Source: an uncultured delta proteobacterium (GTDB lineage Bacteria; Bdellovibrionota; FAC87; UBA2466). From it: a stretch of 64,000 bases of DNA. The notes beneath the pieces were generated by a model, which was not told where the DNA came from, did no database searches, and worked only from the letters and a program-made list of their open reading frames with translations. The stretch lies in contig CAVZSV010000001.1 in assembly GCA_963778115.1 (NCBI GenBank), positions 65,011 through 129,010 of the forward strand, read 5' to 3'. The translations under genes and the position numbers were made by a program. Shown piece by piece: positions 27,069 to 63,610 of the stretch (the first letter of the stretch is position 1; every line of letters begins with the position of its first letter).

Positions 27069-28136
27069 ATGGTAAATTTACTCGTGTGTTTCGTATTGTC
27101 TTTATTTTCTGCATCCGCGATGGCAACGGAAGGTCTTACTCCGGTCGAAGGAATGCAAAAAGATCTCTTTATCTATGCGTTTCCTGCTAAAGACGCTGAG
27201 GGACAGCTAGAAGGCTATGTCTATTCGCGTCGAGAATTGGATAACGTCTGGGTTGATGTGGGAGCGCAAGACCGACACGCAACCTCCGTAGTTGCGCCTA
27301 AAATGGACTACAAGGTCTTTACCTACAAAATTCCGGGAACCATTGATTCCAAGACAACCGAGCTCAAGCTACATAGTTATGACGTAGCTTCCAAAGCTTT
27401 GATCTTTGCGAATTTTACCGCCGAACCAAAAGACGACGGGATAAAGTTTGGATTAGTCTCGTACGAATACACCGACAAAAACCCACGCCACGTGGGCTTC
27501 CGGGCGTTCTTAGTGGAAACTTCTCCGGGTTCTGGTGTTTTCCACGTCGATTTTATAACGCTGCTACCTTTGGGCTCGGTTTATGGCAAGACGGACAAGA
27601 CCTGGACGGGAACTCAAATACTGCACAATGACAGCAAGCTGGAAAAGATCTACCGACTGAGCCAAACCGTAAAGAATACGGAAGGTCTCACCGTGGAAGT
27701 TCGCGCAAAAAAACTCGACCGTACGGGGTTTGTGCAAAAATTTGTGCTAAAAAAAGAGAACGACTCTGACAAATTTGATTTTGTTTTGGATGGCACAAAG
27801 TCCCTTACGACCGCCGACGTAGCTAAACAGGAGCGCGAAGATGCCGAGTTACATGCTCTGGAAAACAGAAAGAAACTTTTCGGTGGCGCCCAATACAGCC
27901 CCCAAGAAGTTGCTCAAGCCCGTGCCGAGTATATGGCCGCCCGCGGTTGGATGGGATGCCATATTGGTTTTGACGGCAAACCCGTCTCTATGCTCATGGG
28001 CATGGTCCCTACTTCCCAAGGAGGAATGTGGGAGGGCACTGGCTTTAACCGTCCCACCTGTAGCAATGGCAATACGCTTATTGCTGAAGGCAGATCCGGT
28101 GGATACATCGTACATTTTTACCGGCCCTGGAACTAA
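27069..28136 (+). CDS. Secreted hypothetical protein
   Basis: Signal peptide (VCFVLSLFSASAMA). No recognised domain. Confidence 0.5.
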   Translation: MVNLLVCFVLSLFSASAMATEGLTPVEGMQKDLFIYAFPAKDAEGQLEGYVYSRRELDNVWVDVGAQDRHATSVVAPKMDYKVFTYKIPGTIDSKTTELKLHSYDVASKALIFANFTAEPKDDGIKFGLVSYEYTDKNPRHVGFRAFLVETSPGSGVFHVDFITLLPLGSVYGKTDKTWTGTQILHNDSKLEKIYRLSQTVKNTEGLTVEVRAKKLDRTGFVQKFVLKKENDSDKFDFVLDGTKSLTTADVAKQEREDAELHALENRKKLFGGAQYSPQEVAQARAEYMAARGWMGCHIGFDGKPVSMLMGMVPTSQGGMWEGTGFNRPTCSNGNTLIAEGRSGGYIVHFYRPWN

Positions 28137-28149
28137 CGGTTCGTTGGCT

Positions 28150-28198
28150 TAAAAAAGGCAGTGCACTCTGGCCTCTCTAAAGTGCACTGCCTTTTTCT
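28150..28198. terminator. Perfect hairpin terminator (AAAAAGGCAGTGCACT...AGTGCACTGCCTTTTT)
   Basis: 13-bp inverted repeat flanked by an A-run on one side and a T-run on the other. It is bidirectional. Confidence 0.65.
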
Positions 28199-33892: not shown

Positions 33893-34300
33893 ATGGGGAT
33901 GTCGCCAGTGAAATTCCGTCTTAAGGAGTTGTTGCCAAGTCTTAGTGAGCAAGCCAAGTCCTGTCAGGACCGAGAGGTTAAAAAGAGGCTTTATCTGGTC
34001 AAGGCGATAGCGACGTCTAGGAGATCGATAAAGTCGGCGTGTGATTTTAGAGGAGTAAGTCGGGACCGGTTCTATGAGTGGTCGAAGAGATTGCTCAAGG
34101 GGAAGAGTATTTCGGCTCTAGCCCCGCTGTCCCTAAAGCCCCATCGAAGTCCCCATAAGACAAAATCTCAAATCGAGAAAAAGATAATCGAGCACAGAAA
34201 GGCTCATTCCCCCGGGCGAAAAGGAGCTTAACGGAAAGGTCGAGAATACCCCCAAGTACGACGATTCGGAATTCTACAGCCAACACGATTTGCGAACCTA
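33893..34300 (+). mobile_element. Decayed IS transposase remnant (IS481/IS630-like). An N-terminal HTH fragment is fused out of frame to a C-terminal tail fragment
   Basis: 112-aa ORF with a transposase-type HTH (RRSIKSACDFRGVSRDRFYEWSKR). Downstream, in another frame, ...NENRKTKTLGWRTPGLLLEE resembles the conserved C-terminal tail of rve-type DDE transposases. No intact catalytic core is present. Confidence 0.35.
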
Positions 34301-34609
34301 CATGCAACTCTTCGTGGCAATGAAAAACTATAACTACAACTGGAACGAGAATAGAAAAACCAAAACCCTCGGCTGGAGAACTCCAGGGTTACTCCTAGAG
34401 GAAATCAATACCACGATCCTCATCCTGCTCCAATGCTGCCTGCCAGAGCCGCCAGAAACACCCGTCGAACAAAAAACACAATTGCCCACTAAACCCCAAA
34501 AACCAAAAAACCGAATTATCGCTTGGATGGATTGGGAGGCGGCGCAATACCCCAAGTATGCTTTTCTAGCCGTGTCCGGGATGTCTCAAATTTTTTCAGT
34601 AACACGGGA

Positions 34610-36196
34610 TTACTCGAGTGCCTGGTATAGCATCGGTCGGGCAATCGGCATGGTGAACGAAAAGGTCGAACCTTTCTCTGGCTCAGACTCCACCCAGATT
34701 CGGCCGCCGAAATTCTCCACTATCTTCTTGCAGGTTGCTAGACCTATCCCCATACCCGGATATTCATCCCGTCCGTGTAATCTCTCGAACATGCCGAAAA
34801 CCTTATCGAGATACTCCCGCTCGATGCCTATTCCGTTATCTCTGACGGAAAAAATCCAATGGTCTTCTTTGAGACCGACGGAGATCTCAACCTGCGGGGG
34901 GGTTCCAAGCTTGTGGTATTTGACGGCGTTGCTGATTAAGTTTTGGAATAATTGGCCCAATAGCAATTTATCGCAATAAACCCTTGGTAGTTCTGCGATG
35001 CTGAGGGTTGCCCTTTGTTCCTTAAGGCAAATCGCTAGCGTGGAGAGAACCTGATCCACGACTTTTCGGCAGTCCACTTCCTCACAAACCAGTTTTGCTT
35101 TTCTGCCGATGCGTGAATACTCTAGCAGCGACTTAACAAGGGCGGTCAATCTCTTGGCACCATCCACCGCGTAAAAAAGATATTTTTTTTCTTGTTCATT
35201 TAACTTTCCATCGCAGGAGCGCGATATTAGCTGGCAATAGGTCGATATCATCCGTAGGGGCTCAGCCAAGTCGTGTGCGGCGACTGAGGAGTAATTTTCA
35301 AGCTCCGTATTCGATCTCCCGAGTTCTTCGAGCGCCACTCTCAGCTCCTCTCGGTTTTTTGAAAGCTGGCGGTTGTGGTTTACGAAAAAGAAAAATGAGA
35401 TCACGATGGGCGGAATAAATTCCAAAAATTGAAGCGCCCACCAACGAACGTCCCACAACGACGAAAGGGGTTGAATTACGGCTGCCAAACCGAAGAGCAG
35501 ACAGCAAAGTAGAAGTGAAATGGACTCAGCGTTGGAGACCGCCGTCCGCATTCTTAAAAATGCCGCAGAAAAAAACAGAACCGCAGCACAACCCCCGAGC
35601 ATTCCGGATACCCACGTGAATTGTCCGGCAATGAGGATGGGAGGAAGCAGATCGGGAAAAGCACAAGCGATACTTCCAAATGCCATTGCCAGTGCCAGTG
35701 CCAGAACCAGGGCCAAACGACGTTTTCTAATGCTGTTATCACTCGATATCGGTAGCCAGGCCACTAAAAAGGAAAAGCCCAACGCGACCGAACTTATCCG
35801 ATGGAGCCAGGTGACCTTGACCATGTCTTCGGTGACCCCTGCCATGAGCCTAAGTAGGGCCACCAGCCCAAGCGCAAACGCAATCGTCGAAACGCTGGGA
35901 TTTCCCTCATTCTGAAGTCTCTGACTAAGAAACAAGAGCACTGCGGTTGTGAAAATAGTTACCGCCGCCGCTTCGTCCAAAATGGAGTCGAGACGCGCGT
36001 TCTCCCAGTTCCCATTAGGAAGCAAGAGCAGGGTTACCAAAAATAAGACAACCACCGAGACGACACAGGCAAGGGGATTCCCTCGAATTAGTTGGCGAAT
36101 GCCTGTCTTAAGACGCCCAAGGGCAGCGGTCTTCGTCGAGAGAATTGGCCTTTGGATCGCTGGACTGCAACCATTATGGCTCAAGATTTTTACCAC
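34610..36196 (-). CDS. Membrane-integrated sensor histidine kinase (~8 TM N-terminal domain)
   Basis: H-box SSVAAHDLAEPLRMISTY. HATPase_c motifs DNGIGIE and GMGIGLATCKKIVENFGGRIWVESEPEKGSTFSF. Long hydrophobic N-terminus. Confidence 0.85.
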   Translation of the reverse strand: MVKILSHNGCSPAIQRPILSTKTAALGRLKTGIRQLIRGNPLACVVSVVVLFLVTLLLLPNGNWENARLDSILDEAAAVTIFTTAVLLFLSQRLQNEGNPSVSTIAFALGLVALLRLMAGVTEDMVKVTWLHRISSVALGFSFLVAWLPISSDNSIRKRRLALVLALALAMAFGSIACAFPDLLPPILIAGQFTWVSGMLGGCAAVLFFSAAFLRMRTAVSNAESISLLLCCLLFGLAAVIQPLSSLWDVRWWALQFLEFIPPIVISFFFFVNHNRQLSKNREELRVALEELGRSNTELENYSSVAAHDLAEPLRMISTYCQLISRSCDGKLNEQEKKYLFYAVDGAKRLTALVKSLLEYSRIGRKAKLVCEEVDCRKVVDQVLSTLAICLKEQRATLSIAELPRVYCDKLLLGQLFQNLISNAVKYHKLGTPPQVEISVGLKEDHWIFSVRDNGIGIEREYLDKVFGMFERLHGRDEYPGMGIGLATCKKIVENFGGRIWVESEPEKGSTFSFTMPIARPMLYQALE

Positions 36197-36395
36197 TTAC
36201 CCTCTCTCCAATCCGCTGACAAGCGCCCTGGGAACCTGGACCTGTCGCGTTTTAACACTGAAGCGCGGAAGATAAAAGAGGTTGCGACACGCAAGTCGAC
36301 GCGCTCGGGGAAATAAAGAGGTGGCCAAATGGCTCTTCGAAGTCCTATGATATATAAGGCTTTTGCCTATCTTTTCTGATGAGGGGCCGAAATAA

Positions 36396-36830
36396 ATGAA
36401 GGACTCAAGACCCGTTGAAGTACTGTTGGTAGAGGATAACCCTGGCGATATTGGGCTCTTGCGCGAAGCGTTCAAACACGTCAAGGCACCGATGAAACTC
36501 AATGTGGTCGGGGATGGCGAAAAGGCGATGGCATTTCTTAAAAGAACCGGATCGAACAAGAATGCTCCCGTGCCGGATCTGGTTCTGCTTGATCTTAAGC
36601 TTCCCAAAAAAGGCGGCCATGAAGTGTTAAAAGAGATAAAAGGCGACGAAGGTTTAAAAGCGATCCCGGTGTTGATTGTAACGACTTCGCAGTCTAAGGA
36701 TGACGTTCGATTGTCTTATCAAAATCATGCGAACGCGTATGTAACCAAGCCTGGAGACTTGGATGAATTCATGCAAGTCGCTAAGGCGATTGATGAGTTT
36801 TGGTTTCGGACCGCCGCACACCCCCACTAA
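36396..36830 (+). CDS. Single-domain response regulator (CheY-like receiver)
   Basis: LLVEDNPGD, then LVLLDLKLP (phospho-acceptor Asp), then a T-loop and a K at KPGDLDEF. It sits divergent from the histidine kinase. Confidence 0.85.
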   Translation: MKDSRPVEVLLVEDNPGDIGLLREAFKHVKAPMKLNVVGDGEKAMAFLKRTGSNKNAPVPDLVLLDLKLPKKGGHEVLKEIKGDEGLKAIPVLIVTTSQSKDDVRLSYQNHANAYVTKPGDLDEFMQVAKAIDEFWFRTAAHPH

Positions 36831-36993
36831 AGTAAATCTGAATGACTTGGACCTAGACGGGTGGATTTTGGTCCCCAGCAGTCTCACCAAAATCGAGTAG
36901 TTCGCCATAACGGACACCCCATTCCACATCGGTAACGCTACGTTCGCGGCTCAAGTGGACGAATTTCAAACTTGATGCTATCCCCTACTCAGC

Positions 36994-37425
36994 ATGAATG
37001 AAGAAGGCCGAAAACCTATTATGTTTGAGTTTGACGTTGACGTACGCTTTGCAGAGCTCGATTTTTACGGCCACGTCAATCTCAGTAAGTATTTGGATAT
37101 TGTCGTTACCTCGCGATTTCTTTATTTAGAGCGTGTCCTAAAAATCTCCCTCGCCGAAACGGCAAAGGCGGGTGTTGCCTTCTATACGGCCAAAGCGTTC
37201 CAAGAATTTTTACGCCCGATTAAAGGTCTTCAAAGAGTGCGCGTGAAATCGTTCGTCGAAAAGGTCAACGACACTCGTTTGGAAGTTCCCTATGAGATAT
37301 ACGACGCCCAGGGAAAGGTTCTTTATTCCAAAGGGCTTCTGACCTTCGCCATTATGGATCTTAAGACCAACCGACCTTGCCCTCTTCCCGACTCGGCTAA
37401 AGATTGGCTTTTTGAGAAAAACTAA
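36994..37425 (+). CDS. Hotdog-fold (4HBT/YbgC-like) acyl-CoA thioesterase
   Basis: FEFDVDVRFAELDFYGHVNLSKYLDIV is the 4HBT N-terminal pattern. The protein is 143 aa. Confidence 0.55.
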   Translation: MNEEGRKPIMFEFDVDVRFAELDFYGHVNLSKYLDIVVTSRFLYLERVLKISLAETAKAGVAFYTAKAFQEFLRPIKGLQRVRVKSFVEKVNDTRLEVPYEIYDAQGKVLYSKGLLTFAIMDLKTNRPCPLPDSAKDWLFEKN

Positions 37426-37596
37426 GTTCGCTGCAACAACACGCCCAACCCGATACTGACTGCAAACGAGTGAAGCCAGCTTTATAGTTCATGATGCACT
37501 TCGTTTGGGTAGGTCTTTCTCACCTGAAGGATTCCAACCAATTTTTCGTTGTCAGCCATCATAGCTTTTCTTTCTACGCTTTCATTGTCTTGAAGC

Positions 37597-40020
37597 TCAC
37601 TCAATTCTCCTTCCCCCCTCTTCCGTCATCGGCGGCGTGTTGACCGCATTTCCCATTCGCAGCAAGTCTTGGATCAGAAACGGACGGTTGGCACTTTTCC
37701 TTGGTAGTGGCGGACCTAAGTCAATTCCATTACGCAAATGGACGGTTGCCTGCCCTTCGTCGTCAATGGTGACGATGGCAAGCATCCAATCGGCGTCGTC
37801 TAAATGATCGTGGGCGAAGTTTACTTCGGTTGGATAAAAAACTACCGTTCCGTTGGGATCAGAACTGCTTTTAACCTCGATGTGCATCTTGCGTTGGTGT
37901 TGGGAATCCGTGACCAATACGTCATAACCCATTTGGTCCTGAGTGCGGTTGTAAGTGACTAAATTTTGCTGTTCTAAGACACCCCGAACGGCCTCCACAC
38001 TTATCTCTTCCATCGCCGAACGATAGGCGCCTGTTTGCTTTCCATTTCCCCGGGCTGATTTCAATCGATTCACCAAATGGGAGGAAGTAGGCATCGCTTT
38101 TATCGCGAAGGGATCTTCTTCTTCCGCAGGCTCGGAGAGGATCTTGGTCTTAGGCGTCGAAGATCGTAGACTGAGTCGATTAAGTGGGATCTTTGGCATC
38201 TCCCTCATGCTTTGCAGCCATTCCGCTTCGTTTTCGGGCGTCGGGTCCACCAAATAATTCCTAGCCGACTCTGCAATCCTAGCGAGAGGCTCATCCAACG
38301 GTGAAATAATTCCGTGGGCGACATCCACCGAACGTTGGATTCCTCGAAGCAAGCGCAAGAGATCCTCTTTTGCTTCGACGGGGATCGCGGTGGTTTTCTC
38401 ACTGTTAGGAATTTTTCTAAGACGAGCAAGAACTGGAGCTAGGTCGCGCCCGTTTGCGGGAAACTGAATGTTAACTATTCCGTTCGTTAACTCGATCATA
38501 GGGCGCTCTTTGTCGAGCTCAGAAAGGTGAATGCCGCCGCTGATACCTCCATTGCTCGCCGGAGGAGGAGTAAAGAGAATTCCAGTTCCCGTATTGGTGA
38601 CCGACCATTGCCCGTTGTGGATATCGATCCCCCCTGCTAACGATTTGGTAAAGCGGGCGGTCAGATTTTGGAACCCGGGGGCGGCTGCGACCGCCTTGGC
38701 TGTGCTTAACCGTGCATTGAAAGCGGCATCTGCAGAACGTGCGGCAAGATAGCGTTTCAAATGCGTATCGGACTGCTCGGCCATCCTGAGAAGACCTCGA
38801 AAGGCAACATCAGTAGCCATGGGAATTTCCAGTGTGGTCGGAGAAGTATCTCCTAGGGGAACAATGTTTCCACGGAAAGGGGTAGGAGTTCCTGAATTTT
38901 GCATTCCCACAACCTGTACCATCCGTAATTGAAGAGGGGTGTTAAGATGGTCTTCTCTGCCAAAAAGTAGGAACTGCGGTGCCACAATAAAATTTCCCAA
39001 CCGGTCGACGTAGGCATAATTCCATTTCGCGGCGTGGGGAGAAAAAATGGCGCGACGCTGCCCTCGGAGAGGGTCACTTTCGCCAATATTGTGGACTTTG
39101 ATAACTAAGCGGCCGACTTCGGTGGCGTCATCCTCAAAAAATTCGAGCGCCGGATATTTCTTTCCTTGGATCTCTATCGTCGTCTCCTGGAATTTAAGGC
39201 CCAGACGTTGCGCGAGGCTAAGACCGGCGCGATAGGCCGCGCTTCCGATGCGCTGGACCTCCTCGGGCGACGCCGCTCCGGTAATGGCCTCGATATTTTG
39301 AAATTCGGCAAATTTAGCCAGGATAGCCATTTCTAGTTCCTGGTTGTGTTTCTCTAACTCCGATAGCTCCTCACGAAGTCGGGCGAGCTTGTCTGGCTTT
39401 TTTCCCGAACGAGTGAGATTAAAAATGACGTCTCGAATTCCTCGAATTCGCTCTTGGGTTTCGGCTAAGAATTGACCCTCAGTGGAGATGAAAGCCGCCG
39501 CCATCCGTGCAGTGGCGACGCGAAGATTTTCGGGATCGACATATTTGCCCGGCCTTCGATTTTTCGCGACCAAGTCAAACATGATCGGTTTAGCGGCATC
39601 CTTGAGGCGATCGGCTTCCGCTTCTGTTAGGTGTGCGGGAGGGACCTGGTAGGTCAAAGGGTCAACGCCCAAAGGGTGGATTTTAGTCCAAGCGATCTCA
39701 AAGTCTGGGTATCTGGGGAGATCAACAAATAACTTAATTTGGTGGATCGCTTGCAGCGCCATGTTTGGCATCATATGAAAGGGCATGCTGTTGGGTGTTG
39801 AGGCGACGACCTCGAGGGGATCGTCGTAAATTTCTTGAAATCGGCAAAGGGCTGCGAAACATGCGGGGTCAATGCCTGCGGGGACAGTTGTGGTTGAAAG
39901 ACATGATGGTTTTTCTAGATCTCCAGCGGCGAATGCTGAGGGAATACGGCAGAGAGACAAGACAACGCTGGCGACAAAACCGTAGACGAAAGGTGTGACA
40001 AATTTCGGGTATCGATGCAC
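37597..40020 (-). CDS. Large (807 aa) exported hypothetical protein with a C-terminal DUF3883-like (PD-(D/E)xK restriction-endonuclease-like) domain
   Basis: N-terminal hydrophobic signal-like segment. The C-terminus (AYRSAMEEISVEAV...GYDVLVTDSQHQRKMHIEVKSS...) follows the DUF3883 consensus (GYDI...IEVKtT). Confidence 0.5.
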   Translation of the reverse strand: MHRYPKFVTPFVYGFVASVVLSLCRIPSAFAAGDLEKPSCLSTTTVPAGIDPACFAALCRFQEIYDDPLEVVASTPNSMPFHMMPNMALQAIHQIKLFVDLPRYPDFEIAWTKIHPLGVDPLTYQVPPAHLTEAEADRLKDAAKPIMFDLVAKNRRPGKYVDPENLRVATARMAAAFISTEGQFLAETQERIRGIRDVIFNLTRSGKKPDKLARLREELSELEKHNQELEMAILAKFAEFQNIEAITGAASPEEVQRIGSAAYRAGLSLAQRLGLKFQETTIEIQGKKYPALEFFEDDATEVGRLVIKVHNIGESDPLRGQRRAIFSPHAAKWNYAYVDRLGNFIVAPQFLLFGREDHLNTPLQLRMVQVVGMQNSGTPTPFRGNIVPLGDTSPTTLEIPMATDVAFRGLLRMAEQSDTHLKRYLAARSADAAFNARLSTAKAVAAAPGFQNLTARFTKSLAGGIDIHNGQWSVTNTGTGILFTPPPASNGGISGGIHLSELDKERPMIELTNGIVNIQFPANGRDLAPVLARLRKIPNSEKTTAIPVEAKEDLLRLLRGIQRSVDVAHGIISPLDEPLARIAESARNYLVDPTPENEAEWLQSMREMPKIPLNRLSLRSSTPKTKILSEPAEEEDPFAIKAMPTSSHLVNRLKSARGNGKQTGAYRSAMEEISVEAVRGVLEQQNLVTYNRTQDQMGYDVLVTDSQHQRKMHIEVKSSSDPNGTVVFYPTEVNFAHDHLDDADWMLAIVTIDDEGQATVHLRNGIDLGPPLPRKSANRPFLIQDLLRMGNAVNTPPMTEEGGRRIE

Positions 40021-40125
40021 CGGTAGGCAGTCCTCCGCGTATTACTTCTGACAGCCTTGGAAGTATGCAAACGCCGTTCCTGAATAAGGCTCTAGTGAAT
40101 CCTTGAATTCCCTCAGTTAACGTGA

Positions 40126-40944
40126 TCAAAGCAGCGATCGCGGAAATTCCACGGCATCGATCACAAGATAAGCGTTATTAACGCTCGGTTTAAGAGTGAG
40201 GACGTAGTGTCCGGTCTTTAACTTGGCCCCCACTTGGGCCGAGTATGGGACAGCCAGGTGACAAACGCCGCCCGCCGCTAATACTACGGCGTCGCCCTGC
40301 TGGCGCCACACGTTTCCACCACTACTTTTTTCGTTGAAGAACTTAGTCAAAATGGGTGCGATGGCACTATTACATTCCCCTTTGGAAGCGCTGTTACCGA
40401 GCGAAAGTAACTTCAAAGCACTCTGCGCGACGACCGAGGGAGTATCATCCGACTTGGCCCAGTTAAAAGCCACTGAATAGCTGGTCTCGATCTCGGCGAA
40501 GTAGTTCATTCGAAAACTAACTTCAGATTCACTATCGGGAGTCGCAATGATGTATTCCCAGCCCGTGTGAGGCTCTAAATTTCCCTTGGCCCGATTATTT
40601 GCGGGTATTTCCGACCAAAGATAGGGCACAAGCAGATGGCAGCTATTTCCACGAGCAACGATCGATGCCTCGCCGTTCTGTAGGAACCTGCACTGCTTTG
40701 CAGGACAAAACGCTGCATAGTTTTGACAATTCTTCATTAGGTCAGACGCGTTCTTATAGCCATCATGTTGATGGTAGTATTTGGCCTCTTTTGAAAATAG
40801 CGACACGTAGCCATTGCAATCCTGCCCTAGGCTCGAGAAGAGCTTGTGAAGAAGCGGAGCCATATCCTTCGTCGAACAAGGAACAGCCATTACCGACGGT
40901 CCAACAACGCCGAGTGCAAATAAAGCTAAAGCAAATAAGCGCAT
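40126..40944 (-). CDS. Secreted Cys-rich hypothetical protein
   Basis: Signal peptide (MRLFALALFALGVVGPSVMA) and multiple Cys residues. Confidence 0.45.
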   Translation of the reverse strand: MRLFALALFALGVVGPSVMAVPCSTKDMAPLLHKLFSSLGQDCNGYVSLFSKEAKYYHQHDGYKNASDLMKNCQNYAAFCPAKQCRFLQNGEASIVARGNSCHLLVPYLWSEIPANNRAKGNLEPHTGWEYIIATPDSESEVSFRMNYFAEIETSYSVAFNWAKSDDTPSVVAQSALKLLSLGNSASKGECNSAIAPILTKFFNEKSSGGNVWRQQGDAVVLAAGGVCHLAVPYSAQVGAKLKTGHYVLTLKPSVNNAYLVIDAVEFPRSLL

Positions 40945-40983
40945 ATAAATCTTTCCCTCTCCCCTTACTTATCCGAAAATTAG

Positions 40984-41078
40984 AAGGTGTCACTCTCCTT
41001 TCGGGCCCTTTAGGAACGGGTCACCCAATAGGCAATATGACCCGTACCTTTTGAGCCCGCTGGGAGAGTGACACTTTT
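40984..41078. repeat. ~95-bp imperfect palindromic (MITE/REP-like) element, copy 1
   Basis: GTGTCACTCTCC...GGGAGAGTGACAC outer arms with long inner arms. It forms a ~45-bp stem. Confidence 0.75.
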
Positions 41079-41110
41079 CGGACTATAATTAGTCGTAAAG
41101 GAGACTACCT

Positions 41111-41494
41111 ATGCAAACTAAAATACAGCTTGTGGTTCGAGTACTTCTTGGAGCCCTGTTTCTTTTTGGGGGTATCGCCTTCTTCTTTACGACACCTCCC
41201 GCGCTGACCGGCGACATGGCTACCTATTTTGCCGGTCTCGTTGCTTCCCACTATTTCTTTTACCTTCTTAAATTTAGCGAGATCGTGGTGGGTGCGTTCC
41301 TCGTTTCAGGCTTTTTCGTTCCCCTGGCCTTAGTTATCCTTGCTCCTATTTCCCTTAACATCCTTCTCGTTCACATCTTCTTAGAACCTAAAGGCCTTCC
41401 CACGGCTATAGCAATAGCGATCGCTGTTGTTTACCTCGGGTTTTTCTCCCCCAGCTACAGTCCCGTACTAAGAAAATTGTTTGTTCCCAAGTGA
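41111..41494 (+). CDS. Small 4-TM membrane protein of unknown function
   Basis: 127-aa ORF that is almost entirely hydrophobic. It is flanked on both sides by the palindromic elements. Confidence 0.5.
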   Translation: MQTKIQLVVRVLLGALFLFGGIAFFFTTPPALTGDMATYFAGLVASHYFFYLLKFSEIVVGAFLVSGFFVPLALVILAPISLNILLVHIFLEPKGLPTAIAIAIAVVYLGFFSPSYSPVLRKLFVPK

Positions 41495-41513
41495 GTGGAA
41501 CAACAAGAAGGCA

Positions 41514-41612
41514 AGAAGGTGTCACTCTCCTAGCGGGCTCAAAAGGTACGGGTCATACTCAAACTCCAATATGACCCGTTCCAAAAGGGCCCGCTAGGAG
41601 AGTGACACTTCT
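41514..41612. repeat. ~100-bp palindromic element, copy 2, in inverted orientation relative to copy 1
   Basis: It shares the arms AAGGTGTCACTCTCCTAGCGGGCTCAAAAGGTACGGGTCA / TGACCCGTTCCAAAAGGGCCCGCTAGGAGAGTGACACTT with copy 1. Confidence 0.75.
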
Positions 41613-41663
41613 TAGGGTCATCGATCTTCCTATGGTGTCGCCTGTGCATATAGGAGGTCATTC

Positions 41664-42062
41664 ATGCAGCAACAAGAAACAAATGGACCGAAATCCGGTC
41701 GCTTCGAGTTTCAAAAGTGGTCCGTCTATCAAAGGGCACTTCTTTTCGTGAAGGCAAGTTTTCGACTTTGCGATAGGTTCCCTAAACAATCGGTAACTGG
41801 ATTGCGAGATCAGTTTCGTAGAGCGAGTCAGTCTATTCCTCTAAATATTGCGGAAGGCTGTTCGAGATATTCTTCTAAGGATAAGGCAAATTTTTGGAGA
41901 GTAGCTAAGGGTTCGGTGTTTGAGTGTGTAGCGATTTTGGATTTGGTAAGGACGATGGAATTGGTGGAAGAAGGTATCGATGATTTGGAAATTGAGTTGG
42001 AGCATTTGGGGAAGATGTTGTCGGGGTTGATTCGATTTATTGAGACTAATCCGAGGAAATAA
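41664..42062 (+). CDS. Four-helix-bundle protein (23S rRNA intervening-sequence protein family, TIGR02436; Avd-like fold)
   Basis: YQRALLFVKASFRLCDRFPK...RDQFRRASQSIPLNIAEG...FWRVAKGSVFECVAILDL is the characteristic family pattern. Confidence 0.85.
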   Translation: MQQQETNGPKSGRFEFQKWSVYQRALLFVKASFRLCDRFPKQSVTGLRDQFRRASQSIPLNIAEGCSRYSSKDKANFWRVAKGSVFECVAILDLVRTMELVEEGIDDLEIELEHLGKMLSGLIRFIETNPRK

Positions 42063-42203
42063 GAGTCCGATGGCGGGACGCAAATTTGATGGAACCTAGG
42101 TTGAGAGGGTTTGGAATTTTCACAACATTAACCGGCTACGCCGGGCTGGAGGTTAAGATTAAACTTAAGGGTAACCTTAATAGTTATGGCGGGGCGGACG
42201 GGG
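41924..42203 (+). repeat. 280-bp direct repeat, copy A. It covers the 3' end of the four-helix-bundle gene plus 140 bp downstream, and ends in the 17-bp core ATGGCGGGGCGGACGGG (42186-42202)
   Basis: About 97% identical to 49588-49867. Confidence 0.85.
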
Positions 42204-42322
42204 CGCGTTAGGCGTGATCCGCGAAGTTGAAGAGATCGTTCGAAAATAACAAATGACGACGAGACACTCGTGTTTCGCGACTGAACGAAACTGCACCGAA
42301 ATGAAAGAGATCACCATGTCAT

Positions 42323-46888: not shown

Positions 46889-47163
46889 CAGCGTGCTCCT
46901 TTTTCCGCTTCTGCATCACGGTGTGCGGATTAACTAGCGGGTCTTGGGTTATCACGCACAGATGGTCTAGCCAAGATGTTAGAAGCGGAAGGTCTGTCCG
47001 TTTTGGACGGCGAGTGGTCTCAGGACTCATTTTGGTGTTGGGACTTTATATGGTCTACAAGGGAATATTTACCTAAGATTTCACTGGTTCACCCCACATA
47101 ACCGAAGACACATTTTGATTATTGTTGACTCCGTACTATAGTACGGAGTCTATAATTTGAGGT

Positions 47164-47568
47164 GTGGATATGACTATTGGCAAACTGGCGGAGGCAGCGG
47201 GGGTCGGCGTGGAGACCATCCGTTTTTATGAGCGAAAAGGTCTCATCAAAAAGCCGCAGCGCAAAGACGGCGGATTTCGTTACTACTCAGACGAGGAAGC
47301 ATCAAGAGTACGGTTTGTAAAACGGGCCCAGGAGTTGGGGTTCACGCTACGCGAAGTGAAAGATCTCCTGGACCTTCAATCCAAGCGCAAGGTGACCGGC
47401 TCGCAGGTCCAAAAGAGGGCTCAAGAGAAAATAACCGAGATCCATAAAAAGATTTCTGACTTGAAACAAATGGAAGCGTCACTCCAGCGCCTTGCCGAAG
47501 TCTGCGGAGATGGCGAACAAGCCATCCGAGAATGCAAAATTTTCGACTGTTTTGGAAAAGGTTGCTGA
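47164..47568 (+). CDS. MerR-family metal(loid)-responsive regulator with a C-terminal Cys cluster
   Basis: MerR HTH (IGKLAEAAGVGVETIRFYERKGLI...ELGFTLREV), a coiled coil, then C-x8-C...C-x5-C. Confidence 0.85.
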   Translation: MDMTIGKLAEAAGVGVETIRFYERKGLIKKPQRKDGGFRYYSDEEASRVRFVKRAQELGFTLREVKDLLDLQSKRKVTGSQVQKRAQEKITEIHKKISDLKQMEASLQRLAEVCGDGEQAIRECKIFDCFGKGC

Positions 47569-49560: not shown

Positions 49561-49587
49561 AGTCCGGCAATTTCTGCTGCGAGGATC

Positions 49588-49867
49588 GGTGTTTGAGTGT
49601 GTAGCGATTTTGGATTTGGTAAGGACGATGGAATTGGTGGAAGAAGGTATCGATGATTTGGAAATTGAGTTGGAGCATTTGGGGAAGATGTTGTCGGTGT
49701 TGATTCGATTTATTGAGACTAATCCGAGGAAATAAGAGTCCGATGGCGGGACGCAAATTTGATGGAACCTAGGTTGAGAGGGTTTGGAATTTTCGCAACA
49801 TTAACCGGCTACGCCGGTCTGGAGGTTAAGATTAAACTTAAGGGTAACCTTAATAGTTATGGCGGGG
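49588..49867 (+). repeat. 280-bp direct repeat, copy B. It contains a 5'-truncated copy of the four-helix-bundle gene 3' end (a gene fragment) and the 17-bp core at 49859-49875
   Basis: Near-identical to copy A. The ORF-track ORF 49286-49735 is a read-through artefact fusing the arsC antisense/out-of-frame region to this fragment. Confidence 0.85.
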
Positions 49868-49993
49868 CGGACGGGATTCTTTAGGACGATTTTGCAACGC
49901 GTTGGATCGTAACGATTATTAATAATCACAAAAGCTTACTCGTAAATTCGACATGACCGAAAGCGCACCAAACTGCCACTACTTGCCATTCCT

Positions 49994-50069: not shown

Positions 50070-50303
50070 ATGACTGACAAAAATGAGCCCGAGCAGATGG
50101 CTGCAGAAAATGACTATCGATTAGTTTGGACGTTTGATGATGTTGCCCGTGAGCTTCAGTGCTCTAAACGCCTGGTTGAAAAGCTTGTGCAAAAAGATCG
50201 TATTCCCCATGCAAAGGTGGGACGGCTTGTTCGGTTCAGTCCAGCCAGAATTAAAGAATGGATAGAGAAAGAGGGACGAGATGAATGCCTTATGCACCAT
50301 TGA
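50070..50303 (+). CDS. Excisionase/AlpA-family HTH DNA-binding protein
   Basis: 77 aa, ...FDDVARELQCSKRLVEKLVQKDRIPHAKVGRLVRFSPARIKEWIE matches the Xis/MerR-like winged-HTH 'excisionase family' pattern. Confidence 0.6.
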   Translation: MTDKNEPEQMAAENDYRLVWTFDDVARELQCSKRLVEKLVQKDRIPHAKVGRLVRFSPARIKEWIEKEGRDECLMHH

Positions 50304-50763
50304 TAGCGGCAGTAATTCCATCGAACGTAAAAGAGAGAGCCCATTTCGCTTTGGCGGCGAGAATAATCTGTGGCGAAGTACAGTCCTTATTGATCTTAAC
50401 GGCAATTATCTTTTTTCCCAATTCAATCGCCTTTTCAATTTCCCATTTCACCCATTCGCTGGCGTAAGTAGTGCCTCCAATTAGACAGAGAAAATGAGTC
50501 GCACCCGAGATCTTTGCGGAAATGGCTCGCTTAATAACCGCGGCATTAGTACTGTCGATAGAAATATCGGCCGATTGATCGCTCATTCCAAAGTCGAAAT
50601 CTCCATTCTTGTCCCAAGCAAGTAGCAGGTTTTTATAATGTTTGTCGTTATCAAAATCATAGCTGATAAAAATTCTTGTTTTTGCCACTCTTGCAACCCT
50701 CCCAAAAAGTTCTTTATTGTGGTGAGTCGTGATAAATATGTAAAGGAATTTCTCCCGGGTCAT
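50290..50763 (-). CDS. TIR-like protein of the ThsB/DUF1863 type
   Basis: RIFISYDFDND...W opening, with CLIGGTTYASEWVKWEIEKAIELGKKIIAVKIN. This closely parallels Bacillus ThsB (CVLIGSQTFNRRWVRYEIMKSIEKGNKIIGIHIN). Confidence 0.7.
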   Translation of the reverse strand: MTREKFLYIFITTHHNKELFGRVARVAKTRIFISYDFDNDKHYKNLLLAWDKNGDFDFGMSDQSADISIDSTNAAVIKRAISAKISGATHFLCLIGGTTYASEWVKWEIEKAIELGKKIIAVKINKDCTSPQIILAAKAKWALSFTFDGITAAINGA

Positions 50764-50862
50764 GGCGCTGCGCTCCAGGAATGGAAGAGGGACTTCGGGA
50801 TAACACTTTCCGTGGAAGAGAATGGGGGCTACGCGTTGAACAAGCCGCTTTGCTTCGTGCTA

Positions 50863-52197
50863 ATGCCATTTGGGGAAAAAGTGGACACGACAGGCACTAA
50901 AGTCGATTTCGATCGGGTTTATCAAGAGGTAATCGCGCCGGCGATTTCCGAATCAGGTATGGAGTGTATCCGTGCTGATGAAGAACAGGTCGGGGGCATC
51001 ATTCATAAACCAATGTTTGAGCGCTTAGTTCTTTGCGAATATGCCGTTGTTGATTTAACGACCGCCAACGCTAACGTGTTTTACGAACTAGGCGTTCGGC
51101 ACGCGGTTCGTCCTTGGAGCACGGTGCTGTTGTTTTCAGCTCCAACTCGATTACCTTTCGATGTTGCTCCCCTGCGCGCGATGCCATATAAGTTGCAAAA
51201 AAATGGCCACCCTGCTGAAGTTACTAAAACGAGGGCGTCCCTTGTAAAACGACTAAATACGGCACGAGCGGCAGCGAAAGATAAGCCCGCTCACGACAGT
51301 CCCGTTTTTCAGCTGCTCGATGGATTCCCCGAGATCGACCATACTAAGACCGATGTGTTTAGAGACCGAGTGAAATACTCGGAGGGAATAAAGCAGAGTC
51401 TCGCTGAAGCCAGGAAAAAAGGGCTCGACGCAGTAAAGGCGGTTGAAACCACTCTTGGCGACATTGCGACTCAAGATATTGGTGTAGCCGTGGACCTATT
51501 TCTTTCTTATCGTGCCGTTAGCGCCTGGAAAGATATGGTCGATCTGGTTGGGAAAATGGCGCAACCGCTTGCTGCGACGGTGATGATTCAAGAACAACTT
51601 GCTTTCGCTTTGAATCGTCTCCGAAAGAGTGATGAGGCGGAAGTCGTCTTGGTGAATTTGCTAAAGACCAGAGGAAAGAGTAGCGAGACGCTAGGGATTT
51701 TAGGACGCGTTTACAAAGATCGGTGGCTGGAAGCAGAAAAGTCCGGAGAGCAAAAGGTCGCTCAAGGTTGGCTCGAAAAGGCTATTGAGACTTACCTTCG
51801 CGGCTTTGAGGCCGATTGGCGTGATGCCTATCCGGGAATCAATGCGGTTACATTAATGGAAGTAAGGACCCCACCCGATCCTAGACGAAAAAAGCTGATT
51901 CCCGTTGTGATGTACTCAGTTGAACAACGCCTCGATCGTGATGAGCCGGACTATTGGGACCACGCCACACTTCTTGAAATCTCCGTACTAGGTCGAGACG
52001 AAATCACTGGCAAGGAGGCGCTAAACAATGCCCTTATCTCTATGCGAGAGGCATGGGAGGGCACGTCAACGGCTGGAAATTTGCTCATAATCCGAAAAGT
52101 AAGGGAGACGCGCAATGAGACCTTCAATTGGGCCATGGAAGCTGAGCAAGCCATTACGGAGCGGGTGCGAGTCATATCGCAGGCTGCAAAAAACTGA
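50863..52197 (+). CDS. Two-domain protein with an N-terminal nucleoside-2-deoxyribosyltransferase-like (TIR/SLOG-related Rossmannoid) domain and a C-terminal alpha-helical TPR-like domain. The ORF opens at 50638, with the likely start at MPFGEK
   Basis: FVLMPFG...VDFDRVY...ADLTTANANVFYELGVRHAV resembles the NDT-family catalytic-Glu motif (D..(S)GT.FElG). The remaining ~300 aa are helical-repeat. It lies divergent to the ThsB-like gene. Confidence 0.45.
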   Translation: MPFGEKVDTTGTKVDFDRVYQEVIAPAISESGMECIRADEEQVGGIIHKPMFERLVLCEYAVVDLTTANANVFYELGVRHAVRPWSTVLLFSAPTRLPFDVAPLRAMPYKLQKNGHPAEVTKTRASLVKRLNTARAAAKDKPAHDSPVFQLLDGFPEIDHTKTDVFRDRVKYSEGIKQSLAEARKKGLDAVKAVETTLGDIATQDIGVAVDLFLSYRAVSAWKDMVDLVGKMAQPLAATVMIQEQLAFALNRLRKSDEAEVVLVNLLKTRGKSSETLGILGRVYKDRWLEAEKSGEQKVAQGWLEKAIETYLRGFEADWRDAYPGINAVTLMEVRTPPDPRRKKLIPVVMYSVEQRLDRDEPDYWDHATLLEISVLGRDEITGKEALNNALISMREAWEGTSTAGNLLIIRKVRETRNETFNWAMEAEQAITERVRVISQAAKN

Positions 52198-52232
52198 TAT
52201 AGATCCTGCTTTCCGGCTCACTACCTTTTGGT

Positions 52233-52982
52233 TCAAGACCCTTTCGGTGAGTCTAGATGCCGCAATAATTCAATTGCGGCCTTAAGCGGATCTTTGGGCA
52301 GCTTAGGAAATAATCTACTTGCTTCTCCTCCGAAGTCATTCGGAATAGGCGAATCATGTCGATGAGCTTCACTAATCGCAATAGCATGATTCATCTCTAG
52401 CGGTATAAACACTACCTTCTTATTCGCATCTATCGCGCCTTTAATTTCATCGGCAGCCACGCGTCCACCTCCGATTCCAATAAACACGTCACCGGTCTCA
52501 ATAATCACACCAGATGTAGGAGATAATCGCTGTTTTTGAGGATCGATCCCCCCCCAGAGACTATCTTCGATAATGAAAACTTTGTCGACTGACCTACAGG
52601 ATTGTATTCCCTTCTCCTTGGCTATCGAGGAGATAATTCCGACTGTTGTAAAACCTAATTCTTTCGCGATCGGGTATATCTCTCCAATACCGTCGCAGCT
52701 GGCCCCAATTGTGATAACCACTTTCCGTGGATTCAACTCCTTTAGAATCGTTCTTGCGTACCGTTTCATGGTCATTGGATTCTCGTAACCGAGGGAAGAG
52801 AACCCTAAGAAGGTCACACTTTTTTTACCGGCTGATTGGTAGTATTTTTTGATCGGCTCGCTGGGATTTGATCCTTCCAGTTCGCTCATGACGGTGACCG
52901 TATATATCGAACAGCTAAGTATTACTAGCAGGGTTAAGCGGTCTGGAAGCGAACGCCAAGACTTCCATTTCTCCATCGACAT
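52233..52982 (-). CDS. Membrane-anchored SLOG/LOG-family Rossmann-fold protein (TM-SLOG)
   Basis: N-terminal TM helix (LTLLVILSCSIYTVTVM). The Rossmann core with G-rich loops (VVITIGASCDGIGE...VFIGIGGGRVAADEIKGA) is reminiscent of the LOG/SLOG PGGxGTxxE motif. It is the last gene of the TIR operon. Confidence 0.5.
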   Translation of the reverse strand: MSMEKWKSWRSLPDRLTLLVILSCSIYTVTVMSELEGSNPSEPIKKYYQSAGKKSVTFLGFSSLGYENPMTMKRYARTILKELNPRKVVITIGASCDGIGEIYPIAKELGFTTVGIISSIAKEKGIQSCRSVDKVFIIEDSLWGGIDPQKQRLSPTSGVIIETGDVFIGIGGGRVAADEIKGAIDANKKVVFIPLEMNHAIAISEAHRHDSPIPNDFGGEASRLFPKLPKDPLKAAIELLRHLDSPKGS

Positions 52983-53009
52983 AATCCTTTTTGCTCTATG
53001 CTCTACCGC

Positions 53010-53567
53010 CTAAGAAACGTTTCTACTCATTTTCTCTCGACTGTTTATTATTTTGCTTTTGTCGGAACTCTTACGAATCGCTTCTTCGATCGCCGTTTTG
53101 ATGACAGCGGGATCGGAAGTCCAATCAATATGGTGAATGTATCCCGATACAATGTTCTCGTGCAAGCGATCGGCTACAATTGCAGAATTGTTCTCACCTC
53201 TCGTAACCGAGGGTAAAATAATGCCGAGTACTGCGTGTTCAAGGTGGAGCGTTGAGTAAATTTCCCAGTCCACATACTTTCTCTTCCAGGTTTCTGCCCC
53301 GCACAAAACTACGGTAACAGATGAGCCTTTAATGAACTCTTCGCGTATTCGACGATTAACGTATTCCGTATCGTTACTACGAATACTGCCATCGACAGAC
53401 TGGTCATAGAACACCTCATAGTTGGACGAAAAAAGTTTCTTGAATTGTTCAAACCAGGTCCAGTCGTTTGCGTGGTGGAAGCTAATAAATACCTTGCGTT
53501 TGGTCTGTTGGTTCAATATCCCGGAAAGACCTGCGAACCTGGTCGCAAAGCGATTGTCAGAACTCAT
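53010..53567 (-). CDS. TIR-like protein of the ThsB/DUF1863 type
   Basis: KVFISFHHANDWTWF...TVVLCGAETWKRKYVDWEI is the same signature as ThsB. Confidence 0.7.
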   Translation of the reverse strand: MSSDNRFATRFAGLSGILNQQTKRKVFISFHHANDWTWFEQFKKLFSSNYEVFYDQSVDGSIRSNDTEYVNRRIREEFIKGSSVTVVLCGAETWKRKYVDWEIYSTLHLEHAVLGIILPSVTRGENNSAIVADRLHENIVSGYIHHIDWTSDPAVIKTAIEEAIRKSSDKSKIINSREKMSRNVS

Positions 53568-53576
53568 ATTAGTCCC

Positions 53577-54116
53577 TTACAGCTTTAACCAATTCTTCAA
53601 TAGCGTCACGCTCCTCGTTCCGCTGGGTTCCGGATCTACTACCCACTGCTTCCCCGAATATCCAGTTACCCTAATAAATCGAATTACCGGGTACAGCCCT
53701 AGATACTCTCTTCTCGCCCACGCCTCTTCAGTAGAAGAGCGCCCCATGGGAAGCAACGCCACATTCCCAACTCCTTTGTGCCCATCACCCATTCCCAGCT
53801 CCCACGGGATCCACCCCGACCTGGAGCTATTCTCAGACATCATTATAACGAGACGGCCAGAACGACGTAACTCGCTACGAAGGATTTCCGCTGTCTCGGC
53901 GGACGGGTTCTCTGGCAGGCGCTTATCGCCGTTATCGGCATAAACAACGCCTCCGTGCTCTCGAAGAAAATCGCTTACGCCCCTTACATATAAGTCATCT
54001 TTGGATGAATGGGAGAGGAAAATTTTTTGCCCTCTTCCTTCCGCGAGCCTTTGATCGTTGGTGAGTGCCTCAGACTTACGAATCTTGTTAATGTCGTCGA
54101 AGGTAATATAAGCCAT
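53577..54116 (-). CDS. TIR domain protein (TIR_2 type)
   Basis: KIFLSHSSKD (box 1), ...LVIMMSENSSRSGWIPWELG (the SxWC/EL box), and a conserved Glu. Confidence 0.75.
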   Translation of the reverse strand: MAYITFDDINKIRKSEALTNDQRLAEGRGQKIFLSHSSKDDLYVRGVSDFLREHGGVVYADNGDKRLPENPSAETAEILRSELRRSGRLVIMMSENSSRSGWIPWELGMGDGHKGVGNVALLPMGRSSTEEAWARREYLGLYPVIRFIRVTGYSGKQWVVDPEPSGTRSVTLLKNWLKL

Positions 54117-54124
54117 AGTAATTT

Positions 54125-55024
54125 TTACTCACCCCTACGGGCCATCCACATAGTGTGTTCTCTGGAAATCGCGTTTTCTGTATTCTTCACAAAGACCCCC
54201 AAATCATTGTCGCTATTCACAGAGTTTGAATCAACCTCAACCAAGCTTAGTTCCTGAGCCGTCAGCGCGTAGACTTGAGCGAGCTCCTGAAATTTGCGTA
54301 TTTGCATCCAAGAAAATAGTGCTATGGCTAACGCCGAAAAGAAACCAGTCATATTGCGGCTTTCCGGTTCCTTAATTAAATAGAGAGCCCATAAAAATCC
54401 AATTAGCTGGGTTGCAATAGCACAACGAAAAAATGTCGTTTCCTTTGACCTATTGAACTCCGCCTTGCCTGCATACCAGTTTTTTTGGTCCATCAAACGA
54501 AATTTCAAGTATATTGTTTTCCGCTCATTCGTGGTGGAAGCCCTTATCTTTCGCATTAGGTCGGTGATTTGTGGACCTTGATTCGTTGATGTTTGAAAAT
54601 CGAACGCAAGATATTGCCTTTCGGTGAGAAATTCCGAAAGAGCGCTGGCAAACTTCCGATCAGCATCGCCAGATGCGAGTTGAGTCGGATAAGGATCAGC
54701 GCCCATCATATATTTCCAGGAAAGGCTTTTCACCGATTCTGCGACTGCACGCGCACCGTACCAAGTTTTCTCATAGCGAGTAAATTTGAGCGCTAGAGAA
54801 ACAAGGAAGGCCAAGAGAAATAGGAAGGCACCCGCAATCGCAAACCAAGACTTACCCTCATGCTGAAGGGAGCTAAAGGAAGATAGCAAGACTCCTAATA
54901 GAACCAGGATAAGATCTGCTTTCACCAAACGAGCATACATTCCCTGCGCCTTGAGTGAGGCATTGTTTGCAATATGCCAGAGGACCGGCAGGTCCCTATC
55001 CTGCAGACTAGTTGTCATGAGCAT
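54125..55024 (-). CDS. 4-TM membrane protein, a candidate SLATT-like pore/effector domain protein
   Basis: Two TM hairpins (LILVLLGVLLSSF/WFAIAGAFLFLLAFLVSLAL and FFRCAIATQLIGFLWALYLI/FFSALAIALFSWMQI) are separated by soluble helical segments. It is tightly linked (8-9 nt spacers) upstream of the TIR genes. Confidence 0.4.
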   Translation of the reverse strand: MLMTTSLQDRDLPVLWHIANNASLKAQGMYARLVKADLILVLLGVLLSSFSSLQHEGKSWFAIAGAFLFLLAFLVSLALKFTRYEKTWYGARAVAESVKSLSWKYMMGADPYPTQLASGDADRKFASALSEFLTERQYLAFDFQTSTNQGPQITDLMRKIRASTTNERKTIYLKFRLMDQKNWYAGKAEFNRSKETTFFRCAIATQLIGFLWALYLIKEPESRNMTGFFSALAIALFSWMQIRKFQELAQVYALTAQELSLVEVDSNSVNSDNDLGVFVKNTENAISREHTMWMARRGE

Positions 55025-55799: not shown

Positions 55800-55872
55800 A
55801 CTCGGACGGCGGAGATTTTTAACGCATTGAGTTAATTCAAATAACAAAAACTAACAACGAGTTACTTGTTAG

Positions 55873-55996
55873 TGTGTCCCGCACAGAAACGCACCAATTA
55901 GCCCCTTTTACCCCTATCCTGTCCCACAAACGTCCCACAAAAAAGCGAGTGGGACGGGTACGAGCGTAGGCGGAGTTTGGCGTGGGACGGTTTCGT
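55873..55996. repeat. ~125-bp repeat, copy C, containing GTCCCACAAACGTCCCACAAAAAAGCGAGTGGGAC (55921-55955)
   Basis: About 90% identical to 63474-63598. Homologous to the motif regions of A and B. Confidence 0.8.
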
Positions 55997-56022
55997 CCCC
56001 TGATGGGGGCAATCTCCCGTGA

Positions 56023-63473: not shown

Positions 63474-63598
63474 GTGTGTTCCGCACGAAAACGCACCAAC
63501 TACCCCCTTTTACCCCTATCCTGTCCCACAAACGTCCCACAAAAAAGCGTGTGGGACGGGTACGAGCGTAGGCGGAGTTTGGCGTGGGACAGTTTTAT
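63474..63598. repeat. ~125-bp repeat, copy D, containing GTCCCACAAACGTCCCACAAAAAAGCGTGTGGGAC at 63523-63557
   Basis: About 90% identical to copy C. No 17-bp core lies upstream of it. Confidence 0.8.
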
Positions 63599-63610
63599 CC
63601 CCTCGTACCG

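Follow-up and report, generated by a model that had tools for sequence, protein, structure and literature searches.

A probable short palindromic interspersed repeat family in Bdellovibrionota, with two inverted copies around a doxX gene

The gene for a DoxX-like membrane protein (doxX) in an uncultured Bdellovibrionota genome is flanked by two inverted copies of a palindromic element. This element is best read, at a probability of roughly 0.65, as a short palindromic interspersed repeat copied in trans, of which two old copies came to flank a resident doxX, and not as a composite transposon, a terminator pair or an island boundary. Both copies lie in a 64-kb window, the whole stretch of DNA that was analysed. 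Copy 1 occupies 40982–41079 with its T-tract on the + strand (left arm 40987–41024, spacer 41025–41036, right arm 41037–41074), and copy 2 occupies 41514–41613 with its T-tract on the − strand (left arm 41519–41556, spacer 41557–41570, right arm 41571–41608). Between them is doxX (41111–41494, + strand; Pfam DoxX, E 9e-6), which encodes a 127-aa protein and is preceded, between copy 1 and its ATG, by a TATAAT (41084–41089) and the Shine-Dalgarno sequence AAGGAG (41098–41103). The divergent neighbour of doxX encodes a 272-aa secreted-looking protein with no Pfam match (40126–40944, − strand), and a gene of the 23S_rRNA_IVP four-helix-bundle type follows on the other side (41664–42062, + strand; Pfam E 3e-27). 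The first-pass annotation of this DNA had described two inverted copies of one palindromic element that bracket the 127-aa ORF, the second lying about 50 bp upstream of the four-helix-bundle gene. This description holds in every part: the copies are present with cross-arm complementarity of 92–95%, the gaps to the ORF are 33 nt on the left and ~20–25 nt on the right, and the distance from copy 2 to the four-helix-bundle gene is 51 nt.

Both copies are imperfect palindromes of ~95–100 nt that open with GTGTCACTCTCC and close with GGAGAGTGACAC. Within copy 1, the arms are 78% complementary over 40 nt (40984–41023 with 41038–41077), and a few additional bases pair beyond both arms; within copy 2, they are 85% complementary over 39 nt (41519–41557 with 41570–41608). 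Across the copies, the right arm of copy 1 is 95% complementary to the left arm of copy 2 over 42 nt, and the left arm of copy 1 is 92% complementary to the right arm of copy 2 over 37 nt; aligned in direct orientation, the copies reach only 83–84%. Their arms are 92–95% alike, their spacers are unrelated, and their longest exact identity is 26 nt. The family member L005, from outside the window, matches the two copies in opposite orientations at 96.0 and 93.3 bits and in the other pairing at 67.1 and 51.8 bits. The 12-mer GTGTCACTCTCC occurs four times in the window against 0.18 expected (at least four in 0 of 100 shuffles), and all four occurrences are the four arm ends. RNA folding, which the first-pass annotation had recommended, places both copies far below shuffled sequences: predicted energies on both strands of both copies range from −57.6 to −71.6 kcal/mol (z −8.8 to −13.4), with −57.6 kcal/mol (z −8.8) for copy 1 and −68.8 and −71.6 kcal/mol (z −13) for copy 2. 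A covariance model built on the repeat family and run with filters off over the 64 kb scores copy 1 at 96.5 bits on the + strand and 73.9 bits on the − strand, and copy 2 at 105.8 bits on the − strand and 84.9 bits on the + strand. The model finds no third copy in the window, and its next-best match there, at 28150–28198, is an ordinary bidirectional terminator. That site, which follows the gene at 27069–28136, is a textbook intrinsic terminator (A-tract, 17-bp stem, T-tract) and is unlike the repeats.

Throughout the family, each full copy consists of two ~38-nt inverted arms around an 8–30-nt spacer, is about 88–100 nt in total length and is non-coding. In the aligned full copies, an arm reads in order GTGTCACTCTCC, four variable nucleotides, GGGCC(C), TTTT and GG(A/T)ACGGGTCAT; the 12-mer is invariant, and the spacers are unrelated from copy to copy. 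The 4-nt block differs between copies, and within a copy the two arms mostly complement each other there (TAGC/GCTA, ATTT/AAAT, TTTT/GGAA). The T-tracts of both arms lie on one strand in every full copy, which creates a conserved 4×4 internal loop and makes the element polar; with this design, either strand is expected to fold into one long hairpin with a 4×4 T/T (or A/A) internal loop. Paired cells make up 93% of the alignment, compared with 33–52% when the partners are slid. Changes on both sides of a pair are seen in 6 of 35 pairs, compared with 2.8 ± 1.1 in shuffles (2 of 500 reach six), a count drawn from five distinct sequences. Compensatory change across these five sequences gives moderate support to a maintained palindrome, and it could reflect either selection for the hairpin or gene conversion within the palindrome without selection. 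A lone arm folds no better than shuffled arms and has no palindromic core of its own.

Relatives of the element are found at unrelated sites in other genomes. The full-element seed, GTGTCACTCTCC-N50-80-GGAGAGTGACAC, had zero matches in the species-representative genomes, a set that does not include the source genome. The half-element seed, GTGTCACTCTCC-N15-25-ACGGGTCA, which is conserved in all four window arms, had one real match among 185,579 species representatives, in a Bdellovibrionota metagenome-assembled genome (L003), and seven real loci in the metagenome collection, on five contigs of Ga0206963 and two of JACCDG01. Five other matches (L002, L007, L012, L019 and L020) lie inside coding DNA with no further similarity and were dropped as chance matches. 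The real matches are all in DNA of Bdellovibrionota type. The collection scans demanded exact seeds of 20–24 bases, and by the yield of an exact 20-base seed (one species-representative match and seven metagenome loci) the family appears to be rare overall. Six full copies are known in total, namely the two window copies and those at L005, L006, L009 and L010, together with five single arms (one each at L003, L008 and L011 and two at L004); Ga0206963 holds at least three full copies and three single arms on its five contigs. All copies are intergenic, many of them 0–50 nt from a stop codon, and the genes beside them are unrelated and ordinary (a hydrolase, a GNAT protein, a ParE toxin, secreted proteins). 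At the unlinked loci L005 and L006, the 87-nt elements are 100% identical, with common GTAGAG and CTTTCATT edges; being identical, these copies are young. The claim of a dispersed family of MITE/REP-like elements is thus borne out by relatives at unrelated intergenic sites, including the two identical unlinked copies. The annotation had further reasoned that a pair unique in its genome and lacking flanking direct duplications would favour simple local terminators; the duplications are indeed absent, but further copies exist, in other genomes.

No known family accounts for the element. Searches of Rfam at gathering and permissive thresholds returned only sub-threshold miRNA-like hairpin matches, a BLAST search of plasmids and a search of viral contigs had no match to the element, and the literature search found no paper on REP, MITE or RAYT in Bdellovibrio. 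These searches suggest a previously undescribed repeat family that is confined to one Bdellovibrionota lineage.

The five single arms are all of one arm type, and no significant decayed partner arm was detected within 160 nt of them. At L003 and L008, where the flanking genes are non-homologous, the single arm ends a common unit of ~125 nt. A second, unrelated interspersed repeat of ~80–125 nt, of the form CCATAAATTC...ACTCTCTA(T/C)ACGG, was observed on some of the same contigs (L005 160–283; L006 109–232 and 3580–3663; L003 3276–3354 and 4000–4078); its copies are 92–100% identical and have no Rfam match.

The placement of the window copies bears on whether they act as RNA. The start codons of the 272-aa gene (ATG at 40944, − strand) and of doxX (ATG at 41111, + strand) face away from each other on the two sides of copy 1, which is therefore at no gene's 3′ end and can terminate neither flanking gene. 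Copy 2 starts ~20 nt past the doxX stop, and its tail, CUUCUUAGGG, has no clear U-tract. The proposal that the two copies form a bidirectional terminator pair is not supported, and only copy 2 is positioned where a terminator or attenuator could act. A consensus terminator scan flagged neither copy, and its loop limit of 8 excludes them anyway. A consensus scan for outward promoters found none at the GTGACA ends, whose spacing to the TATAAT at 41084–41089 is 10 nt. Judging from predicted folds, the copies at the doxX locus probably only add very stable stem-loops to the transcripts that cross them. Copy 2, in the 3′ trailer of doxX, might protect the 3′ end, attenuate read-through to the four-helix-bundle gene or serve as a site for a double-strand RNase, and for copy 1 the position would be a 5′ leader or the space between the divergent promoters.

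It has to be considered whether the copies are RNA structures specific to this locus, either as cis-regulatory hairpins of the doxX unit (a 5′ leader element with a 3′ terminator, attenuator or stabiliser) or as partners whose pairing loops out the doxX message. The predicted folds are very stable, copy 2 is correctly sited past the doxX stop, and both copies are at one gene. In addition, if one RNA covered the two copies, its predicted minimum-energy fold would join copy 1 to copy 2 (−83.5 and −70.9 kcal/mol, versus −57.6 and −68.8 kcal/mol for the local hairpins). However, any imperfect palindrome present in two inverted copies will pair in this way, and the fold does not speak for a function. 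The RNA reading also has to contend with the position of copy 1 between divergent starts, only 33 nt before the doxX ATG, with the lack of a U-tract after copy 2, with two DoxX orthologues that do not have the element (L013 and L014), and with the copies in other genomes, which stand beside unrelated genes and point either way relative to transcription. With respect to co-directional flanking genes, L005 and L009 are in the sense orientation and window copy 2 is antisense, and this variability argues for an element that exists at the DNA level over a strand-specific RNA signal. A role restricted to RNA at this locus is consequently judged distinctly unlikely.

The 272-aa protein was used as an anchor for finding orthologous loci. 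Its homologues are named as Pseudobdellovibrionaceae and Pigmentibacter, on which basis the source organism looks Pseudobdellovibrionaceae-like. Exact look-ups of the four-helix-bundle protein and of a protein at the window edge returned no record. Homologues at 45–57% identity are also present in eukaryotic sets (MMETSP, EukProt, Prymnesium parvum) besides Bdellovibrionota, a distribution that suggests gene transfer or bacterial contamination. In L013, the same divergent gene pair is found without the element (neighbour 78% and DoxX 76% identical), and in L014 a DoxX gene (75% identical) lies 2.8 kb from the neighbour gene, again with the element absent. The existence of the pair without the element in L013 indicates that doxX is resident and vertically inherited and is not cargo. 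The first-pass annotation had raised the possibility of a composite unit, and a composite transposon or integron-like cassette carrying doxX would fit the sight of a small ORF tightly flanked by two structured repeat copies. Such a unit is scarcely credible here: L013 keeps the neighbour and orientation of doxX without the repeats and the two proteins have diverged alike (76% and 78%), no transposase or integrase was found, the copies are inverted and not direct like attC sites, and their ends are GTGTCAC/GTGACAC and not RYYYAAC/GTTRRRY.

The inverted arrangement could also suggest a DNA switch in which the doxX segment flips between the two copies, since the inverted repeats of 42 nt (95%) and 37 nt (92%) enclose a segment of 440–550 bp that holds the whole gene and its ribosome-binding site. 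This is very improbable. No recombinase or invertase domain was detected in the ORFs examined, from about 28 kb to 61 kb of the window; the longest exact identity between the copies stops at 26 nt; and the element also occurs singly elsewhere. Moreover, a single orientation is present in both available assemblies, the second being a Logan contig (L001; run ERR11523675) that crosses copy 1 and the whole of copy 2.

This contig, which is from the same strain, corresponds to window positions 34024–41608 with one SNP in 7585 nt, and it stops at 41608, the final base of the GTGACAC of copy 2. No repeat of at least 21 nt of this copy 2 tail occurs elsewhere in the window. The neighbouring Logan contig stops inside a 300-nt direct repeat of the adjacent island (described below), which indicates that the assembler does break at repeats. 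The stop at 41608, where the window offers no repeat, most likely means that the k=31 graph branched, with the same ~30 nt present elsewhere in the sample beside another flank. The break thus points to a further copy, or several, in the sample, although strain heterogeneity at that position would give the same picture. In the source genome itself, the copy number may be very low, as only two copies are found in 64 kb and both are at one locus.

The flanks and the arms provide the evidence on how the element spread. No consistent direct repeat that could represent a target-site duplication was found at offsets of 0–15 nt in five full copies, including L005 and L006. A pair of AATTAG sequences near copy 1 was considered as a target duplication and rejected, since its offsets are asymmetric and the other copies have no counterpart. 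At L005 and L006, the element's own ends are tandemly duplicated (11, 20 and 14 nt) immediately beyond its borders, and these are not classical target-site duplications. The duplicated termini (L005 1987–2110, L006 1964–2079) consist of GTAGAGGTGTC, GAGAGTGACACCTTTCATTA and ACACCTTTCATTCA, each present twice, and the GTAGAGGTGTC duplication holds the stop codon of the upstream ORF. A clean empty site was available for none of the copies compared: the intergenic DNA of L013 is too diverged to align with the window, L014–L018 and L021 have other neighbours and no element, and the ORF flanking the young L005 copy has no homologue other than itself.

No transposase of any kind was detected in the ORFs examined in the window or in the related loci. 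A phmmer search with the E. coli RayT as query returned zero homologues among 1412 ORFs of the window and related loci, and neither the window, the related loci nor the collection scans with exact 20–24-base seeds yielded a parent insertion sequence bearing the ends of the element.

These observations are relevant to a classical MITE with terminal inverted repeats (TIRs), moved by the DDE transposase of an insertion sequence that shares its ~38-nt ends, in which case the window pair would represent independent insertions. The ~38-nt arms, the sharp ends, the absence of coding capacity and the dispersal of the family are all expected of such a MITE, and the single arms resemble solo TIRs. Conversely, target-site duplications are absent from five full copies, the young L005 and L006 included, a partner insertion sequence with these ends appeared in no scan, and a same-strand T-tract mismatch and a compensatory block are unexpected for a double-stranded TIR binding site. 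A DDE-mobilised MITE is therefore unlikely, while still deserving a place among the explanations to be weighed.

A short palindromic interspersed repeat copied in trans remains the preferred reading. Across the family, the element occupies dispersed intergenic sites, has identical unlinked copies, sharp ends and single arms, and shows no target duplication. Such an element would be non-autonomous, and the enzyme copying it in trans would be the product of a gene elsewhere in the genome. The enzyme would most likely act on a folded single strand, in the style of REPIN/RAYT or IS200/IS605 systems and not by the cut-and-paste mechanism of DDE transposases. Three features speak for such a substrate over a DDE-bound double-stranded TIR: duplications are lacking even at identical copies, the T-tract mismatch lies on one strand, and a block of the arm changes in a compensatory way. 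Both window copies would have reached the spacers beside doxX independently of each other or through a local hop. Random insertion of a low-copy element would be unlikely to place two copies within 630 bp, which makes a local hop the simplest account, and a local or functional reason for the pairing of the two copies around doxX is possible.

The copies have also been regarded as recombination hotspots that helped create the island downstream of doxX. This 7.4-kb island has a 300-nt direct repeat of its own at its two boundaries (41910–42209 and 49583–49882; 97% identical), the left copy of which includes the 3′ half of the four-helix-bundle gene and starts ~300 nt downstream of copy 2, and the hotspot proposal accordingly finds no support. 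The island encodes PPK2, a P-type ATPase, a MerR-family regulator, a glyoxalase, an ACR3-like SBF transporter and an ArsC-like phosphatase, and no integrase was seen inside it; it looks like a metal/arsenic-resistance insertion at the 3′ end of the four-helix-bundle gene. Within the island, at 47120–47157, a TTGACT and a TATAAT are separated by a 20-nt spacer that contains the perfect dyad CCGTACTATAGTACGG. This site lies directly upstream of the MerR-family gene (47164–47568) and divergent from the P-type ATPase gene, and it has the long-spacer promoter/operator layout typical of MerR regulators. Beyond the island, a defence-type cluster at 50290–55024 includes two ThsB-like TIR proteins, a MAP3K_TRAF_bd/TPR-S protein, a weak SLOG-like protein and a SLATT_3/SLATT_1 two-TM effector. 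Farther along, a 130-nt direct repeat (55872–56001 and 63474–63603; 93% identical) is shared by two intergenic regions 7.6 kb apart. No contribution of the palindromic repeats to the neighbouring resistance and defence islands is visible.

A bolder reading can be imagined, which is unlikely to be right. The family would be a REPIN-like replicator population in predatory-type Bdellovibrionota, whose folded single strand is copied by a RAYT-like or novel enzyme, with the same-strand T/T loop as a strand discriminator, right-arm singlets that are self-spreading, and the doxX pair co-opted. If so, right-arm singlets would spread alone, for which the ~125-nt unit at the non-orthologous L003 and L008 loci may be compared, and the co-opted pair would provide either an inter-element RNA duplex of ~40 bp by which the doxX message is looped out and processed or a rare substrate for DNA inversion.

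With this family, a short palindromic interspersed repeat is added to Bdellovibrionota, where no described one was found. As miniature repeat DNA goes, the family is new but fairly ordinary, and it opens no long-standing question. Its clean anatomy (units of two arms with a compensatory block and a polar mismatch) could help to find the mobilising enzyme in scans of complete genomes from the lineage. For annotation of the window, doxX should not be treated as mobile cargo, and the hairpins should not be labelled as a terminator pair.

The element can be compared with several known systems. It differs from integron attC sites in its ends (GTGTCAC/GTGACAC), in the inverted arrangement of its copies and in the syntenic doxX of L013, which has no such sites. 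Like an intrinsic terminator, it is a G+C-containing intergenic stem-loop, with copy 2 after a stop codon and copy 1 followed by UUUU on the + strand; unlike one, it has stems of ~40 bp and loops of 12–14 nt, and copy 1 lies between gene starts. Terminal inverted repeats, small size and the absence of coding capacity are shared with TIR-type MITEs, from which the element is set apart by its lack of target-site duplication. Hairpin-type bacterial MITEs that are co-transcribed with their neighbours include the Correia elements (CREE) of Neisseria, ERIC/IRU of enterobacteria and RUP of pneumococcus. These are imperfect intergenic palindromes of ~100–150 nt, whose transcripts form long hairpins that can alter mRNA stability and which can make or break promoters. 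Correia elements have a TA duplication and recognisable promoter boxes, whereas the present element has no duplication, no promoter-like hexamer pair at proper spacing and no Rfam similarity.

The closest comparison is with REPINs and BIMEs, in which REP doublets form hairpins and are mobilised by RAYT tyrosine HUH transposases (Bertels & Rainey, 2011; PMC3116915). REPINs in this host phylum are not reported in the papers searched. There are differences between the two: a single arm here is without a palindromic core, GTAG is found only before the L005 and L006 copies, copy number appears low compared with tens to hundreds, and no RAYT was found in the window or the related loci searched. Conversely, both consist of two near-equal inverted units with a short spacer that form a hairpin of ~90–100 nt. 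As with REPINs, the element is strictly extragenic, doublets and singlets coexist (on the related contigs; the window holds two doublets only), there is no target-site duplication, and identical copies are found at unlinked sites. REPIN excision is reported to be asymmetric (PMC3116915), and the end remnants at L005 and L006 recall asymmetric REPIN excision intermediates, an analogy that may serve only as a lead.
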